64,000 nucleotides of DNA from Alphaproteobacteria bacterium (GCA_040216735.1 JAVJOO010000002.1:149118-213117), one strand, 5' to 3'. Positions 19,085 through 25,438 are shown, numbered from the stretch's first letter. The notes: generated by a model from the letters alone, not told the origin. Numbers and translations: made by a program.

Positions 19085-19924
19085 TCAGCGCGCCTTGACG
19101 GCGAGGACGTCGCACGGCGGGTGGCACAGAAAATCTTCCGCAACGCTCCCGAGAAATGCGTGGGTGATCCCAGTACGACCGTGGGTGCCGATAACGAGAA
19201 GGTCGGGTTTGAGTCGCGCGAACTCCTCGTCGATGACTTGACGAACCAGACCCTGCCGCAGGATTTGGTCGAATTCGACCCCGGTCACGTCCAATCCGGC
19301 AAGGAACGCCGCCATCTCGACCGCGGCTACTTCGCGGAACTGTTTGTCCTGCTGTAGACCCGCCGTTTTGCGATTGTCCGCGAGCCCTTTGAAGGGAATG
19401 TGATAGGCATGGATAAGGTGAAAGGCACCACCCTCGACAAATGCCGCCGCAATCTCGACCGCTCGTTTGGCGAAGATCGAAAAATCGACGGCGACCATCG
19501 CGCGTTTGTAAGGCCCGGTGGGGCGATCGCGCACCACCAAAACCGGCACTTCGGCCGTGCGGATTACCCGTTCGACGGTCTTGCCGCGAAACATGTCCTT
19601 GATCGCGTCTTCGCGGTGAACCCCAAGAACGACCAGATCGGCGCCGGTTTTAGCTGCCATGCCGAGGACGGCGGCATCCTTCTTGCCCTGCACGACCTCG
19701 ACGGCAACGCGGAGGCCGCTAGCGACAGTGAGCGCCGCGACATGGTCGTGAATAGCCTTCTGCGCGGCGGCGCGCTCCGCATCGGCGGCGGCGGGCCGCA
19801 ATCCCTCATCCAGGACATGGACAACCGTCAATGCCGCGCCGCGCGCCTCGGAGATTTGAACAGCGCGCTCCAGGGCCCGGTCGGACCTCGCGGATAGGTC
19901 CGTCGCCATCAACAGTTTCTTCAT
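19085..19924 (-). CDS. Universal stress protein, tandem UspA domains
   Basis: ATG at 19924 (MKKLLMATDLSARSDRALERAV); two USP repeats with ATP-binding-like segments (GTHGRTG, GVHRED). Confidence 0.8.
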   Translation of the reverse strand: MKKLLMATDLSARSDRALERAVQISEARGAALTVVHVLDEGLRPAAADAERAAAQKAIHDHVAALTVASGLRVAVEVVQGKKDAAVLGMAAKTGADLVVLGVHREDAIKDMFRGKTVERVIRTAEVPVLVVRDRPTGPYKRAMVAVDFSIFAKRAVEIAAAFVEGGAFHLIHAYHIPFKGLADNRKTAGLQQDKQFREVAAVEMAAFLAGLDVTGVEFDQILRQGLVRQVIDEEFARLKPDLLVIGTHGRTGITHAFLGSVAEDFLCHPPCDVLAVKAR

Positions 19925-20109
19925 CGCGCCGCTCTCCCAACAACGGTCCAATCCCGCATCCATATGGGGAGAACGCACTCCTATTTCCACAGAATTCGGC
20001 GCGCTGCAGTCTTTTTTGGGCGCGTTAACAGACGACGTTCGGCGGTGCTGCTGTAGCGCGGGGGACGGCAGCCGACGAGGGGTCGGTGTGGCCAACGGTG
20101 GCGTGGATT

Positions 20110-20200
20110 TGGCGGAGGGGGTGGGATTCGAACCCACGGTACCTGCAAGAGGTACAACGGTTTTCGAGACCGCCCCGATCGACCACTCCGGCACCCCTCC
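20110..20200 (-). tRNA. tRNA-Ser (anticodon CGA), class II with long variable arm
   Basis: Reverse complement reads GGAGGGG-UG-CCG...CGG-G-GCGGU-CUCGAAA-ACCGU-long variable arm-GUGGGUUCGAAUCCCAC-CCCCUCC-G-CCA; anticodon loop CU-CGA-AA; folded by hand. Confidence 0.85.
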
Positions 20201-20570: not shown

Positions 20571-20645
20571 CTTACTAAGAAATAAGGGAGCAGACCGACG
20601 CGGCGAGTGGGCGATAGCCCAGTACCGGCGGGCGGAGGAGCTATT

Positions 20646-22037
20646 GTGTGGTTGGGTTGTTTAGTGGAGGCACTCGGTCGGTTGCGGTCGCCTGCGGTAC
20701 TCTGGCTCGGGGCGAGTCTTGCGGTCAACTTCGCCTTCTTCGCAACCGGAGAAGCAACCGGGCAGCAGCTTCCGCGCGATGATACACAGGCACACCTTGG
20801 CGTGGAGAGTTGTGGCGGTTCGGTATGTCACGACGCCGCTCAACCGTGGCCGACATCCCCGGTGACGCAGAACGAATATTCTATCTGGAAACAGCAAGAC
20901 CGTCATTCACGGGCGTACGCGACACTAACCACCGCCGAGTCTGCACGGATTGCCCGCAATCTTGGAATTGCCGACCCCACAGGCGCCGACATCTGCTTAG
21001 ATTGTCACGCCGACAATGTTGCGCCGGCTGTCCGGGGCCCATCGTTCGACATCGCGGAAGGCGTCGGCTGTGAAGCCTGCCACGGCGGTTCCGCCGACTG
21101 GGCGGGGCCGCATGCCGACGGATTTTCATGGCACAAGTCGAATACCGCCTTGGGACTCTACCCAACAGCAGATCCCGTCGCGCTGGCGGCCCTTTGCATC
21201 TCATGCCACGTCGGATCGGAAGGTTCCTTTCCGAGCCATCGTCTTTACGGTGCGGGCCATCCCCGTCTAGCGTTCGAACTCGATACTTTTCTCGTTCGTC
21301 AACCGATGCACGCGCAAGTCGACGTCGACTACCTCCTGCGAAAACCGCCGGCGAACGGCGCCAAGTACTGGGCGATCGGGCAGATCGCGACGGCCCACCG
21401 GCTCGCAGTTCTGATGTCCGAGGCACCACGCCTATCCGACGGTGCGTTTCCTGAATTGGCATTCTACGACTGCGCGGCGTGCCACCACCGGATGACCGAT
21501 TGGCCGGCCATGGCTGTTCGAACATCTCCGAATCCGAAGCCTCGCCTGAACGCAGCATCCTTTGTCATGGCGACGGCGATCGCCGCCTCATTGGTGCCGG
21601 ATCTTGCGATGGACGTTCAACGCGGCAGTATGGCTTTGCGTGCGGCGGCATTCAGCGACATGGCGGACTTGAATGAGGCTGCCATGCAACTCGTGAATCC
21701 CCTGAACATGCTCCTTTCCCGTACCGCAGAGTTCGATTTTGATGGTTCGGAGCGGAACGCCGTACTCCGCGCGCTGTTGGAGACCGGCGCGAATGGAAGC
21801 TACCGCGACTTCTCCGATGCTGAGCAAGTCGTCATGGCACTGGCCGCCCTTATCGCCGCGAGTCGGGGCGACTCGGTGCGCCCAATGTCCGCGGAAGGCG
21901 TGACCGCAAGGTACATGGAGATGTTCTATTCCGCTGCCGCCGACGCGGGGAGATTCGACCCCATCACGTTCAGAGCGGTTTTCGAGAAGGTCACAGAAGT
22001 TTGCGGGGATGCATGTCGAACGGGAGGAAGATCGTGA
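20646..22037 (+). CDS. Secreted multiheme c-type cytochrome (4 CXXCH + 1 CX4CH sites), ~463 aa
   Basis: GTG at 20646 preceded by GGAGGAG (5-nt spacer); N-terminal signal-peptide-like sequence (VWLGCLVEALGRLRSPAVLWLGASLAVNFAFFATGEA); heme motifs CGGSVCH, CLDCH, CEACH, CISCH, CAACH. Confidence 0.75.
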   Translation: MWLGCLVEALGRLRSPAVLWLGASLAVNFAFFATGEATGQQLPRDDTQAHLGVESCGGSVCHDAAQPWPTSPVTQNEYSIWKQQDRHSRAYATLTTAESARIARNLGIADPTGADICLDCHADNVAPAVRGPSFDIAEGVGCEACHGGSADWAGPHADGFSWHKSNTALGLYPTADPVALAALCISCHVGSEGSFPSHRLYGAGHPRLAFELDTFLVRQPMHAQVDVDYLLRKPPANGAKYWAIGQIATAHRLAVLMSEAPRLSDGAFPELAFYDCAACHHRMTDWPAMAVRTSPNPKPRLNAASFVMATAIAASLVPDLAMDVQRGSMALRAAAFSDMADLNEAAMQLVNPLNMLLSRTAEFDFDGSERNAVLRALLETGANGSYRDFSDAEQVVMALAALIAASRGDSVRPMSAEGVTARYMEMFYSAAADAGRFDPITFRAVFEKVTEVCGDACRTGGRS

Positions 22038-23890
22038 AAGTTGGCTTCGGTCGGATACCTACCGCCTTTTGCTACCTCCTGGCGGTTTGTTTTTTTCAAT
22101 TGACCTTCTTCACGGGGCTCAGTCTTGCCCAGCAGGGTGTGTCACCTGATCGTGCAAAGGCTTTCGCGCCGGCCGCAGACGGCACCGATGTCCCCTCAGA
22201 CTACCGCCGCTCCGTCGGCATGGACGATGCGGCTCTCGCCCATTCGAACCTATTGTCGGCGGACTCGTACCCATCGGCCGTAGAGTGCGGCCGTTGTCAC
22301 CAACAAATATTCACCGAGTGGGCATCCTCCAATCACGCCTATGCATCTATCTCGCCGATGTTTCACAAGTTCGAGCAGGCCATCAACGACCTAAGTTCGG
22401 GAACAATCGGGGCGTTCTGTGTCCGGTGTCACCAACAGGTCGGAACGCAGCGCGGAGAGTCGCGAGAGTTGCCCCTGTGGGAACGCTCGCCCGTGGCCCG
22501 TGAGGGCATCACGTGCATCACCTGCCACCGGGTGAACGCCGAGTTCGGCAAAGTCAACGGCGAGCGCCATATCGAGCCGGGCAGCATCTACAGCCCCGTC
22601 GTCAACGTTGGACGAAGCGAAAACCTTGGCGATGTCTTGGCCGACCCCGAGGAATACCGCGTGGCCACGGCCGACGATCAGGAAGGAACACCCATTCACA
22701 AGGGCGCCGTCGTTTTCGAACAGATCGGGCGTTCCGAGTTCTGCGTCTCCTGTCATCAGGTGGCCGTCAATTTGGGGATCAAGCTGGAAGTCGTCTGGGA
22801 GCAATATCGAGACAGCCCTGCCTTCCGGCGAGGGGTTACCTGCCAGGATTGCCATATGGGGAAAGTCCCGGGGGAAGCGAAGGGGTATGCCAAGTGGCCC
22901 ATCGCCATCGTCAACGGTCGCGTGATCGGAAGTCCGGAACAAAAGCACTCGAATCATGCGTTCTACGGGCCGGGCTATCCGATCGCGCATCCGGGTCTGT
23001 TTCCGTTCAACCCACGCAGCCTGCGCTGGGATATCCGCGAGTGGCTGACCTTCGACTACCGCGCAGGGTGGGGCACTCCCAACTACGAACAGTCGTTGGC
23101 GCAAAAGAAAGTCCCGTCTCCCGATTTTCCCCCGGTGTGGGCAAAGCGCGAAGATCGCGAAGCCGCGCGTTTGGTGATCGATCAGAACGAAGCGTTACTG
23201 CGGGCAAAGGAACGCGACCGGATTGCCGTCATGGAAAACGGGGGCCGGATCGACGGACCCTTCTTCGACAACGGCAAGCCCGTGTCTGGCAAGCCGCTCC
23301 ACTTCCGCTATCGAATCACGAATGTCGACGAGGGGCACAACTTGCCCTCCGGTTCGCTCGGCGCGCAGCCCGAAATATGGCTGAACGTCGTCCTGGTCGA
23401 CCCTGAGGGTAAGAGAGTCTGGGAATCGGGATACGTCGATAGCTACGGGGACATGGCGGACTTGCATTCTCTCGATGTGGCGGCTGGAAAGATCGAGCGC
23501 GACCGGCAGCTGTTCAACCTGCAGACGAAATTCCTGACGACAAACGTAAAGGGGACCGACCGCGAGATGTACCTACCGGTCCAGTTCGACGTCGATCAGT
23601 TGCCGTTCCTGCGGCCGGCTGCGGTGCCGACGACAGTGCTAAATCACCCACCCTTCGTTCGGATGGAGGGCCGCTCCATTCCCCCGCTTGGCTATCGCGA
23701 CGCGAGCTACACAGTTCCGGCAAATTTGATGGCGACACCGGGACGGTATCGTCTTCAGGTCCGTATGCGCAGTCGAGCTGAGCCGATCTACTTCATGAAA
23801 TTCGTGGGAGCGACCCCCGACATGGAGCAACGGATCAACGAGTTGATGATCGATATTCACCCCTATGCTGTTTCGTTCGACGTTGAATAA
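22034..23890 (+). CDS. Secreted pentaheme c-type cytochrome with ~340-aa heme-free C-terminal domain of unknown function
   Basis: GTG at 22034 preceded by GGGAGG; signal peptide VKVGFGRIPTAFCYLLAVCFFQLTFFTGLSLAQQ; CXXCH x5 (CGRCH, CVRCH, CITCH, CVSCH, CQDCH) all in first ~270 aa; overlaps previous gene stop by 4 nt; alternative ATG at 22013. Confidence 0.75.
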   Translation: MKVGFGRIPTAFCYLLAVCFFQLTFFTGLSLAQQGVSPDRAKAFAPAADGTDVPSDYRRSVGMDDAALAHSNLLSADSYPSAVECGRCHQQIFTEWASSNHAYASISPMFHKFEQAINDLSSGTIGAFCVRCHQQVGTQRGESRELPLWERSPVAREGITCITCHRVNAEFGKVNGERHIEPGSIYSPVVNVGRSENLGDVLADPEEYRVATADDQEGTPIHKGAVVFEQIGRSEFCVSCHQVAVNLGIKLEVVWEQYRDSPAFRRGVTCQDCHMGKVPGEAKGYAKWPIAIVNGRVIGSPEQKHSNHAFYGPGYPIAHPGLFPFNPRSLRWDIREWLTFDYRAGWGTPNYEQSLAQKKVPSPDFPPVWAKREDREAARLVIDQNEALLRAKERDRIAVMENGGRIDGPFFDNGKPVSGKPLHFRYRITNVDEGHNLPSGSLGAQPEIWLNVVLVDPEGKRVWESGYVDSYGDMADLHSLDVAAGKIERDRQLFNLQTKFLTTNVKGTDREMYLPVQFDVDQLPFLRPAAVPTTVLNHPPFVRMEGRSIPPLGYRDASYTVPANLMATPGRYRLQVRMRSRAEPIYFMKFVGATPDMEQRINELMIDIHPYAVSFDVE

Positions 23891-25438
23891 ATGCGTATTC
23901 GAGCAATTTCTTTATTCGTTGTCGCCCTAACGGCATTCTCGTCGGTCGCGATCGCCCAGGTGCCACGACGCACCCATCCGCCCGCCCAAAGTGAGGCAGG
24001 AACCGCGCCCGCCGAAGCACACCAGGCCGCACCCCATACCGACCCGACGGTCCGGCGCGAACCTTTCGACCGAACGCTGTTCGGGCCGGACCCCGTATAT
24101 CCGGTCGGCGCCTACGACCCAGTGGAGGAGACGGCGACCTACGGCGGAAAACGCGCTGTCCCAACTCCACGGCCTCTTCTCGAACTCGGGTATCCGCTCT
24201 ACGACGAAGGCCCCATTGGCGCAGGGCATGACATCGTCGGCGCCAAAAACTTGGTGCGGCCGCAGTTTCTTGTTTACGGCGACTTGCGCACAGCGCTTGC
24301 ATACAACGACACCGGCGGCGCCGAGAAAGGTCAGGTTGCGGCAAGGCTCAACCTTGAGGTGGACCTCAAACTGACGGCGACCGAACGCCTTCATGCCTTT
24401 TTCCGGCCGCTCGACAACAATGCGCGGTTCACGCGGGATGAGTTTTTCGGAGACGACGCACAAGGCGGCGAACTGATTCTCGACGGCGCGCTGGAAACGC
24501 TATTTTTCGAGGGTGACATCGGCGCCATCCAATCGGGCTTGACCGACAGATATGCGCGCTACGACCTGCCTATTGCTTTCGGCCAATTACCATTGTTCTA
24601 CCAAAACGGTATCTGGTTCGATGACGCGGTTGTTGGCGTGGCGTTCGCTGTGCCGGCGCGGAATTCGCCGAAACTCGATATCTCCAATTTCGACGTGTCG
24701 GTATTCGCGGGATTTTCCGATGTCGAGACCACGGCATTGCGCAAGGCCGGTGGTGTGCTCGACGAACACGGCGCTGATGTTTACGGCGCTGTTCTGTTCG
24801 CGGATGCGCGAGAGGGCCATTTAGAACTTGGTTACGGCTATCTCGACGATACGCGTCCAAACGGCAATGCCAGCTACCATAGTCTTGCTTTGGGGTGGTC
24901 GCGCCGCTACGGCGGGTGGCTTTCAAACAGCGTGCGGCTCATCGCCAACATCGGCCAAGACCCGGACGGCGGCGCCATACAGTCCGCCGATGGCGCGGTC
25001 TTCCTCCTTGAGAATTCACTGGTTACCAGCAAGCCGTCGACGCTGGTTCCCTATGCCAACTTCTTCCTTGGGCTCGATCGACCGCAACCGTTGGCGCGGG
25101 GCAACGACGGCGTGCTCAAGAACACCGGAATCAACTTCGAGACCGACGGCTTGACGGGGTTTCCAAAATTGACGGACACCGCCCAGGATGCGTGGGGCGG
25201 CGCCGTCGGCGTATCCTACCTGTTCGATCTCAGCCGCCAAGTCGTTGCGGAAATCGCGACCGTTCAACTCCTCCGCGGTAAATCGGACACGATTGTTGGC
25301 GAAGAAGTCGCCCTGGGCGCCCGGTATCAACAGAACTTGAGCCCTGCCTGGCTCGCCCGCTTCGACGCGATGTACGGCTTTCGGTCCAACGCCGACGACA
25401 TTCGCGGGGTTCGCGCGGAACTCCGGCGGAAGTTCTAG
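23891..25438 (+). CDS. Outer-membrane beta-barrel protein (porin-like), 515 aa, C-terminal Phe
   Basis: ATG immediately follows cytochrome stop (taaATG); signal peptide MRIRAISLFVVALTAFSSVAIAQ; alternating hydrophobic beta-strand patterns throughout; terminal ...AELRRKF, consistent with the BAM-targeting C-terminal Phe signature. Confidence 0.7.
   Translation: MRIRAISLFVVALTAFSSVAIAQVPRRTHPPAQSEAGTAPAEAHQAAPHTDPTVRREPFDRTLFGPDPVYPVGAYDPVEETATYGGKRAVPTPRPLLELGYPLYDEGPIGAGHDIVGAKNLVRPQFLVYGDLRTALAYNDTGGAEKGQVAARLNLEVDLKLTATERLHAFFRPLDNNARFTRDEFFGDDAQGGELILDGALETLFFEGDIGAIQSGLTDRYARYDLPIAFGQLPLFYQNGIWFDDAVVGVAFAVPARNSPKLDISNFDVSVFAGFSDVETTALRKAGGVLDEHGADVYGAVLFADAREGHLELGYGYLDDTRPNGNASYHSLALGWSRRYGGWLSNSVRLIANIGQDPDGGAIQSADGAVFLLENSLVTSKPSTLVPYANFFLGLDRPQPLARGNDGVLKNTGINFETDGLTGFPKLTDTAQDAWGGAVGVSYLFDLSRQVVAEIATVQLLRGKSDTIVGEEVALGARYQQNLSPAWLARFDAMYGFRSNADDIRGVRAELRRKF

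Follow-up and report, generated by a model that had tools for sequence, protein, structure and literature searches.

The gene at positions 22034–23890 (+ strand) of a 64,000-nucleotide stretch of DNA from an Alphaproteobacteria bacterium (GCA_040216735.1 JAVJOO010000002.1:149118-213117), which is referred to below as the window, encodes a 618-residue pentaheme cytochrome with an immunoglobulin (Ig)-like stem. It is a member of the PtdA family, which has been named but is biochemically uncharacterised. The C-terminal half of the protein is predicted to be the Ig-like stem of the PHC superfamily, made larger by a helical linker and by an insertion of 48 residues. Two points are new here: the likeness of PtdA to c552 was found to extend into the C-terminal domain, and a loop of the PtdA stem could be linked at the residue level to the catalytic loop of MccSep. 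PtdA may be read as a periplasmic PHC-type oxidoreductase that acts on a small substrate and is served by a dedicated channel, a reading to which we give about even chances.

The ptdABCDEFG cluster was named in UBA11136, Alphaproteobacteria of the marine oxygen-deficient zone (ODZ), and its function was described as “completely unknown” (bioRxiv 10.1101/2023.11.21.568154). In that work, PtdA was characterised by five CXXCH motifs followed by a C-terminal β-sandwich that was given no role, PtdB was described as a porin, PtdC as an FAD/NAD(P) oxidoreductase, PtdD as a periplasmic tetraheme protein, PtdF as a ferric-reductase-like membrane protein, and PtdG as a decaheme protein; the homologue c552 was already pointed out for PtdA, which was among the well-transcribed genes of the ODZ Alphaproteobacteria, and the cluster was read as a “putative porin-cytochrome complex” (bioRxiv 10.1101/2023.11.21.568154). 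Our assignment is based on architecture and gene neighborhood. The window contains five CXXCH motifs and a C-terminal β-sandwich in one protein, an adjoining porin gene, and a C554-like PtdD with four CXXCH motifs. The window protein is a further member of this named family and not a new kind of system.

The other relative of importance is MccSep/ExtKL, a polysulfide reductase of Geobacter that consists of a five-heme helical cap and an Ig-like β-sandwich stem (PMC13510729). Its hemes 1, 3, 4, and 5 are bis-His coordinated, and heme 2 is ligated by His and Cys239; a loop of the stem carries the catalytic selenocysteine (Sec) into the heme-2 pocket, and the substrate channel runs between cap and stem (PMC13510729). 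ExtKL, Gsu2801, c552, and proteins of cable bacteria have been grouped into a “PHC family”, which combines a PHC domain with an Ig-like domain (PMC11976967).

Heme cap, signature loop, and stem of PtdA

The translation of 22034–23890 contains the motifs CGRCH (residues 85–89; nt 22286–22300), CVRCH (129–133; nt 22418–22432), CITCH (161–165; nt 22514–22528), CVSCH (237–241; nt 22742–22756), and CQDCH (270–274; nt 22841–22855). The only cysteines outside these motifs are C13 and C19, both located in the signal peptide, and none follows residue 273. This leaves residues 275–618 without a site for covalent heme, a disulfide, or an Fe-S cluster. A first-pass annotation of the window had confined the five CXXCH motifs to the first ~270 residues and had called the C-terminal half heme-free; the former was exact (C85, C129, C161, C237, and C270), and the latter was borne out by the absence of later cysteines. 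A Sec-type signal peptide without a lipobox was read from the sequence at residues 1–32 (22034–22129, +; cleavage probably between GLSLA and QQ), and the N-termini of the homologues are variable hydrophobic leaders.

The pentaheme cap spans residues ~70–325 (22241–23008, +), as delimited by the CXXCH motifs, Pfam, and the match to the penta-heme cytochrome c552 of Thermochromatium tepidum (5ZE8). Pfam assigned Cytochrome_C554 to the heme half at 34.9 bits (cut-off 20.8), together with Cytochrome_C7 and Cytochrom_c3_2, a similarity that on these scores is far beyond chance. The sub-threshold NCBIfam and Pfam matches of this half, to DmsE, NrfH, and ExtKL, were all weak. Comparison of the heme part with 5ZE8 gave E-values of 3.9e-5 (phmmer) and 4.2e-6 (profile), in which hemes 1–3 and hemes 4–5 were collinear. 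Exactly four non-motif histidines of PtdA, namely H101, H222, H308, and H435, are conserved family-wide at a level of at least 90%, which fits four bis-His hemes and one special heme.

The last of these histidines lies in the signature loop N430-V-D-E-G434-H435-N-L-P438-S-G440-S441-LGAQPE447 (23321–23374, +), of which the GHxxPxG core is common to c552 and MccSep. The motif GHxxP(S/T/D)G occurs once in PtdA and was present in 120 of 120 close homologues, and it was found 0 times in 70,090 control residues. The C-terminal profile of the family, VxVxNxTDGHxVPTGFxAERxxWLxVxVxDxxGxVxF, aligned to residues 291–338 of 5ZE8 (VWIRNL-QPHAMPTGAP-FRNLYLKLTAYDASGEVLW), and the family member P0216 matched 5ZE8 in three collinear pieces including the C-terminal loop, with a total E-value of 5.6e-7. 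On the MccSep side, the C-terminal segments alone of distant members matched positions 297–337 of the ExtKL/MccSep model NF040886; six of the 12 members did so, with E-values down to 4e-4. HMMER placed residues 495–531 of P0216 on residues 313–349 of MccSep (9wt8_A), so that GH coincides with G318-H319, P with P322, and G with G324. The corresponding MccSep peptide, VEMTNHAGHSIPDGUPTPNR, represents residues 311–330 of PDB 9WT8 and contains GHxxPxG. The residue at the position of MccSep Sec325 is Ser441 in PtdA; throughout the family it is Ser in 130 members and Phe in 20 (the distant clade), and it is never Cys. A second position of interest was reached through c552, of which Cys241 aligns with the invariant Glu252 of PtdA within a well-anchored segment (NPQGVPLC/NPQGVRLE). 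No sequence alignment was obtained between Cys241 of c552 and Cys239 of MccSep, and we infer from their similar position that the two are equivalent.

The first-pass annotation had seen no recognisable motif in the C-terminal half. This view stands for domain models, since no Pfam or NCBIfam model covers residues ~285–618 even at E ≤ 10, and it does not stand for the GHxxP(S/T/D)G loop, which PtdA has in common with c552 and MccSep. The companion expectation, that the region would match no well-known domain already annotated in characterised cytochromes, held by half: there is homology at the level of motif and profile, and no domain model exists for it. Domain searches of this half against PDB sequences with a close-clade profile, and against Pfam at E ≤ 10 with distant members, were also without result.

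AlphaFold2 was run on a 37-sequence alignment of the PtdA family and gave a model of PtdA with a mean predicted local distance difference test (pLDDT) score of 66.8. The cap is followed by a helical linker at residues 326–403 (23009–23242, +), which was modeled at a pLDDT of 83–96, includes a long helix at 372–403, and carries the conserved residues W337, F340, W346, and E352. The Ig-like β-sandwich stem comprises residues 404–618 (23243–23887, +), as assigned from the modeled strands (404–410, 422–430, 448–455, 461–464, 493–495, 554–561, 570–580, and 607–617) and the fold class given by Foldseek. The latter search of the stem against the PDB returned generic Ig-like sandwiches only, including Wzt CBD, macroglobulin MG, ASF1, and the ML domain, with a best E-value of 2e-3. 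The sandwich is interrupted at residues 498–545 (KFLTTNVKGTDREMYLPV...NHPPFVRME; 23525–23668, +) by a conserved 48-residue insertion with many invariant columns, which is nearly invariant among the close homologues though it was not confidently modeled (pLDDT about 30), and which may pack on the hemes or on a partner. The C-terminal half is conserved as much as the heme half in the 37-member alignment, and its long invariant runs include GHNxPSGSLGAQPE and QLFNLQTKFLTTN.KGTDREMYLP.

The distant clade additionally shows a DxDxNG-type acidic loop, SGDLDPNGDxRDxHS, which resembles the Ca2+-binding loops of the thrombospondin or EF-hand-like type. At residues 465–476 of PtdA (nt 23426–23461) this loop is degenerate (SGYVDSYGDMAD), with D469, G472, D473, and D476 retained, and it was for this reason not used as an argument.

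One evolutionary unit and its neighbors

A protein search with PtdA gave 3,456 matches. The best 120 of these showed 62–100% identity over 87–100% of the query, belonged to Alpha-, Beta-, and Gammaproteobacteria, and were named merely “multiheme c-type cytochrome” or “hypothetical”. A scan of genomes, with one genome per species, found at least 591 carriers among Alpha-, Beta-, and Gammaproteobacteria; nearly all are uncultured aquatic metagenome-assembled genomes (MAGs), and Solimonas terrae (strain KIS83-12, locus L049) is a cultured carrier.

When the C-terminal 334 residues alone were compared with 1.84 billion cluster representatives, matches were obtained in only 280 clusters. Among the representatives of at least 540 residues (n = 43), 39 have the five-heme module upstream with a spacing of 44/32/~78/33, and the number of CXXCH motifs was exactly five in 35 and one more in 4. 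The four remaining representatives are frameshifted, have lost their N-terminus, or begin with a Met right behind heme 5. A free form of the C-terminal domain was considered because a profile of distant C-terminal domains gave 120 top matches of 286–474 residues without cytochrome Pfam domains; this idea was dropped, since those inspected were split, frameshifted, or internally started calls located directly behind a heme-domain fragment. The C-terminal domain is never free, and the pentaheme module and this domain are one evolutionary unit. The comparison of fused and unfused forms that the first-pass annotation had proposed hence ended with the domain in fused form only, the apparent heme-free copies being truncated or frameshifted calls. 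Such splitting was seen in the public calls of loci L086 and L087 and in many short matches, where a PtdA-like gene is divided into a heme fragment and a “hypothetical protein” by frameshifts in long-read assemblies or by a start at the Met right after heme 5. Split calls of this kind enter the databases as C-terminal domains that only seem to be free.

Long variants of the family were also found. P0122, P0123, P0126, P0129, and P0130 (804–1218 residues) possess an N-terminal membrane anchor followed by 270–680 disordered Pro/Gln/Ala/Ser-rich residues before the first heme, and this extension looks like a periplasm-spanning tether anchored in the inner membrane. An enzyme domain was sought in the N-terminal extensions (up to 680 residues), and they were found to contain disordered tethers only.

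The gene downstream of ptdA is ptdB-like (23891–25438, +) and encodes a 515-residue protein with a signal peptide and the C-terminal sequence ...RRKF. Pfam and NCBIfam gave no family match for PtdB. Its AlphaFold2 model (pLDDT 81.2) is an all-β barrel of 19–20 long antiparallel strand segments, for which the best Foldseek matches in the PDB are 18-stranded outer-membrane channels (MOMP, AlgE, OprD/Occ, and Wzi; E 1e-11 to 1e-9). Among the 80 related loci that were compared, ptdB adjoins ptdA in the same direction in every one (80/80), and the pairing is also kept in a clade of 30–35% identity. Furthermore, P0157 (1098 residues) and P0185 (1013 residues) consist of a PtdA-like protein fused N-terminally to a PtdB-like barrel, which matched the PtdB of the window in BLAST with E-values of 4e-17 and 4e-16. 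These fusions provide a Rosetta-stone argument for a physical complex of PtdA and PtdB. From the inner-membrane tethers and the N-terminal position in the fusions, the heme-plus-stem unit is predicted to lie in the periplasm next to the outer membrane, rather than on the cell surface. The porin-cytochrome context noted in the first-pass annotation was thus confirmed by the modeled barrel and its constant adjacency, while the surface-exposed substrate-binding or docking domain that it had considered in this context was not supported, given the tethered and barrel-fused variants.

A further form of PtdB was observed in P0295–P0326 (820–843 residues), homologues from Legionellales-like marine MAGs in which the N-terminus is longer by ~300 residues and contains two NTF2-like Cds6_C/SnoaL-like domains. 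In L016, L021–L023, L026, and L031, this extension accounts for the ~1 kb that separates ptdA from the match to the barrel.

Upstream of ptdA lies a ptdD-like gene for a periplasmic cytochrome (20607–22037, +), which is 476 residues long as listed and probably starts further downstream; the protein contains one CX4CH and four CXXCH motifs and a helical C-terminal part, and it matched Pfam Cytochrome_C554 at 48.6 bits. A ptdD-like gene is located within 6 kb of ptdA in 64 of the 80 loci. The CX4CH motif (CGGSVCH) lies about 60 residues upstream of the four CXXCH motifs and is kept in 58 of 70 PtdD-like open reading frames (loci L006–L085), and because of this conservation the “tetraheme” PtdD may bind five hemes.

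The window thus holds the order ptdD-ptdA-ptdB. The GTG start of ptdA overlaps the stop of ptdD in a 4-nt GTGA (22034–22037), a Shine-Dalgarno sequence, GGGAGGAAG, lies just 5' of this GTG, and the ATG of ptdB directly follows the TAA of ptdA (23888–23893). The overlap and the abutting genes suggest translational coupling of all three. An identical 618-residue gene call (P0001) is present in a public collection. On these points the first-pass annotation proved reliable: its GTG start is backed by the Shine-Dalgarno sequence, the GTGA overlap, and the public gene call, the cytochrome it called the second does follow a first one at 20607–22037, and the peptide strings it quoted are present in PtdA. 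A tandem universal stress protein gene is divergently located upstream of ptdDAB (19085–20194, −), and rplU/rpmA-obg-proB-proA follow downstream from 25705 onward. Flanked by unrelated housekeeping genes on both sides, ptdDAB looks like an inserted three-gene unit, and no regulator of its own was seen near the module.

The remaining ptd genes were found in the related loci to a varying extent: ptdC/E/F/G are present in 10–49 of the 80, about half of the loci are without them nearby, and L087 has the ptd genes in the published order A-B-C-D-E-F-G. Three genes recur in about half of the related loci. One encodes a Pyr_redox_2 protein that combines a pair of cNMP-binding domains with 4Fe-4S domains (2x[4Fe-4S]), another a membrane protein of ~281 residues that has two His-x13-His helices and belongs to no Pfam family, and the third an FHA/transmembrane multiheme cytochrome with ten CXXCH motifs; examples of the three are L018:9315-11834, L024:1909-2754, and L021:10367-12067. 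A gene for an FAD/NAD/2Fe-2S reductase is additionally present in ten related loci. Taken together, these genes supply the other components of the published cluster: the FAD/NAD(P) oxidoreductase, the cNMP-binding 2x[4Fe-4S] protein, the ferric-reductase-like membrane protein, and the decaheme cytochrome. The trio of FHA-cytochrome, membrane protein, and 4Fe-4S protein was independently called novel in Ferrigenium (2026 preprint). Literature leads that did not match were Thioclava PmcA, a Desulfuromonadia cytochrome survey, MHCscan, a Methylobacter Mtr-like porin-cytochrome complex, and a Verrucomicrobia octaheme porin-cytochrome complex.

Candidate functions

As an oxidoreductase, PtdA would be exported to the periplasm, where the cap (residues ~70–325) is followed by the linker and the stem, and the stem would be an integral part of the redox module and not an independent binding domain. 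The GHNLPSG loop of the stem would reach back to the heme cap, and H435 would most likely be one of the four distal His ligands (H101, H222, H308, and H435), by which the stem is held to the cap. Heme 2 would be the special site, with a distal pocket lined by S441 to E447 and by Glu252, and PtdA may act there on a small substrate other than polysulfide. The PtdB channel would supply PtdA with this substrate on the periplasmic side of the outer membrane, or would dock PtdA there, which parallels the porin gene extI within the extKL cluster. Electrons would be relayed by PtdD, and in about half of the related genomes PtdC/E/F/G may connect the chain with NAD(P)H. The first-pass annotation had raised the possibility that the C-terminal domain forms the active site of a redox enzyme, and MccSep, the stem of which supplies the catalytic loop, offers a direct precedent for this (PMC13510729).

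Several observations weigh against such an enzyme. The C-terminal links to 5ZE8 and MccSep are individually weak (E 0.3–0.5, and 4e-4 to 0.5 when NF040886 is counted), and it is identity of the motif, collinearity, and transitivity that carry them; the C-terminus of PtdA itself gave no match to NF040886, and 5ZE8 was absent from the top 50 of the Foldseek search against the PDB. The AlphaFold2 model contains no hemes, and its heme half was poorly predicted, as is to be expected when the cofactors are absent. Both the catalytic Cys and the Sec of MccSep are missing, with Glu252 and Ser441 in PtdA, and this replacement means that the chemistry of PtdA must differ from that of MccSep. Each of the five heme motifs is a canonical CXXCH, so that no catalytic heme stands out by an unusual ligand motif. 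In addition, H70, H319, and H478 are kept in at least 75% of the members, and one of them could make heme 2 bis-His, in which case PtdA would be a pure electron carrier. The neighboring genes of the window, which encode a universal stress protein, ADH, and ribosomal proteins and include obg and proBA, point to no substrate, and a tblastn search with representatives found no ptdC, ptdE, ptdF, or ptdG in the 64 kb.

A pure electron carrier is the alternative that survives best, and we consider it possible, at clearly less than an even chance. PtdA would then be the outer-membrane-proximal relay of a trans-envelope chain, PtdC/E→PtdF→PtdG→PtdD→PtdA/PtdB, which delivers or takes up electrons at the cell surface, for example for Fe(III)/Mn(IV) reduction, and the stem would serve only for docking to the barrel or for oligomerisation. 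A trans-envelope conduit of this type was suggested for ptd with the same example of Fe(III)/Mn(IV) reduction, and the “putative porin-cytochrome complex” agrees with it (bioRxiv 10.1101/2023.11.21.568154). The obligate PtdA-PtdB pairing with its natural fusions is consistent with a relay, as are the multiheme partners and the set of NAD(P)H, FeS, and di-His membrane proteins that about half of the related loci encode, the five canonical CXXCH hemes, and the presence of more than four conserved histidines, since the three semi-conserved ones could close heme 2. The sheath of a known conduit, MtrB, is built of 26 strands. PtdB is unlike it in that its best structural matches are 18-stranded substrate channels, and an 18-strand-like barrel would leave little room for a heme chain inside. 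The module also encodes no extracellular or lipoprotein cytochrome, and no heme cofactor is evident that would bridge the outer membrane. Over the 80 loci, the median identity to the window proteins was 68% for PtdA, 52% for PtdB, and 38% for PtdD; it is unusual for a relay cytochrome to be so much more conserved than its neighbors, and the difference points to an enzyme-like constraint. Moreover, only one relative built in this way has been characterised, and it is an enzyme (PMC13510729).

It is unlikely that PtdA is an enzyme of nitrogen oxides (nitrite, NO, or hydroxylamine) similar to NrfA, c554, or ONR, which would be a special case of the oxidoreductase reading with a guessed substrate. 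The score of the heme part with Cytochrome_C554 is in line with this, as are a weak sub-threshold match to Cytochrom_C552/NrfA (20.7 bits) and one to the octaheme nitrite reductase 8rv0 (E 0.21), and the assignment to COG3303, the occurrence in Nitrospirales, and the high transcription alongside nod in the oxygen-deficient zone were reported (bioRxiv 10.1101/2023.11.21.568154). The 20.7 bits, however, fall below the cut-off of 24.1 for the NrfA family PF02335 and cover residues 255–285 only; PtdA has no CXXCK motif, no NrfA-type active-site residues could be aligned, and the neighborhood in the window contains no nitrogen-cycle gene.

A functional orthologue of MccSep/ExtKL, that is, a periplasmic polysulfide or selenite reductase, is very improbable in spite of the shared cap, Ig-like stem, and GHxxPxG loop, the porin gene in both gene clusters, and the sulfur-oxidation genes that are co-transcribed in ODZ Alphaproteobacteria (bioRxiv 10.1101/2023.11.21.568154). 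The site that defines the family of MccSep by Sec or Cys is Ser441 in PtdA (Phe in the distant clade), and mature PtdA has no free cysteine and hence no counterpart of the heme-ligating C239. NF040886 reached only 31.9 bits against a cut-off of 250, on residues 83–107 only, and most of the hosts are aerobes from the Alpha-, Beta-, and Gammaproteobacteria. The sequence argues strongly against this activity. Polymerisation of PtdA into a cytochrome filament, as would be imagined from the structural similarity of small PHCs and c552 to the archaeal nanowire AvECN including its β-hairpin (PMC11976967), is hardly credible, since no evidence of inter-subunit heme ligation was seen here, the barrel-fused and inner-membrane-tethered variants are incompatible with a free filament, and MccSep is a closed tetramer (PMC13510729).

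Among these alternatives we favor the periplasmic oxidoreductase. More tentatively, PtdA and PtdB might represent a new class of periplasmic pentaheme oxidoreductase with its own outer-membrane channel, in which the heme-2 site is built by the stem loop with Ser, Glu, and His where MccSep has Sec and Cys; this stronger form is conceivable and, on balance, doubtful. If true, the reaction of PtdA would be one not yet assigned to any multiheme enzyme, and its substrate may be a small oxidant or metal species of oxic or suboxic waters. Where PtdC/E/F/G are present, cytoplasmic NAD(P)H would drive the reaction directly, by way of a membrane protein with two hemes and a decaheme cytochrome that bears an FHA domain on the cytoplasmic side. 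The structure of MccSep turns the formerly unrecognised C-terminal domain into a set of mutational targets, H435, S441, and E252, and the model derived from it predicts that the neighboring barrel is a substrate channel.

Comparison with known systems

The ptd module resembles MtrAB, PioAB, and the Pcc system of Geobacter in that a barrel gene adjoins genes for periplasmic multiheme cytochromes, which may form a trans-envelope electron route. The differences concern both partners. PtdB resembles 18-strand solute channels in its best matches, with 19–20 strand segments in the model, and the sheath of these conduits has 20–26 strands, and PtdA has five hemes and a bulky Ig-like domain in place of the elongated 8–10-heme wire; the ptd module also contains no surface lipoprotein cytochrome. 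PtdA is separated from the MtrA/DmsE family by its score with TIGR03508, which was 29.6 bits against a cut-off of 192.2. The Cyc2 protein of Fe(II) oxidisers has one heme and a 16-strand barrel, and the PtdA-PtdB fusions P0157 and P0185 recall its cytochrome-barrel fusion; in the window, however, ptdA and ptdB are separate genes, and no sequence similarity to Cyc2 was detected.

MccSep/ExtKL of Geobacter sulfurreducens is closer in architecture, as it is a periplasmic protein composed of a five-heme α-helical cap and an Ig-like β-sandwich stem. It shares with PtdA the GHxxPxG loop (GHSIPDG-U in MccSep and GHNLPSG-S in PtdA), and its extKL cluster contains the porin gene extI (PMC11976967). It differs in that Sec325 is replaced by Ser441 in PtdA and that the heme-2 ligand Cys239 has no cysteine counterpart. 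The stem of PtdA is also about twice as large, and its hosts are aerobes and not sulfur reducers.

Among solved structures, c552 (5ZE8) gave the best match to the heme part of PtdA, with the heme-1 region and the equivalent of H101 kept, and the likeness continues in the C-terminal strand-loop motif IRNLQPHAMPTG...YLKLTAYDASGEVLW. This cytochrome is shorter (435 residues), as it possesses neither the helical linker of ~80 residues nor the insertion of 48 residues that are present in PtdA, and it has Cys241 where PtdA has Glu252. The closest system is the ptd cluster itself (bioRxiv 10.1101/2023.11.21.568154). The window contains only D-A-B, in contrast to the published order A-B-C-D-E-F-G, and agrees with it in a PtdA of five CXXCH motifs and a β-sandwich, a porin PtdB encoded immediately downstream, and a C554-like PtdD beside them; the hosts of the related loci are likewise Alpha- and Gammaproteobacteria from water.

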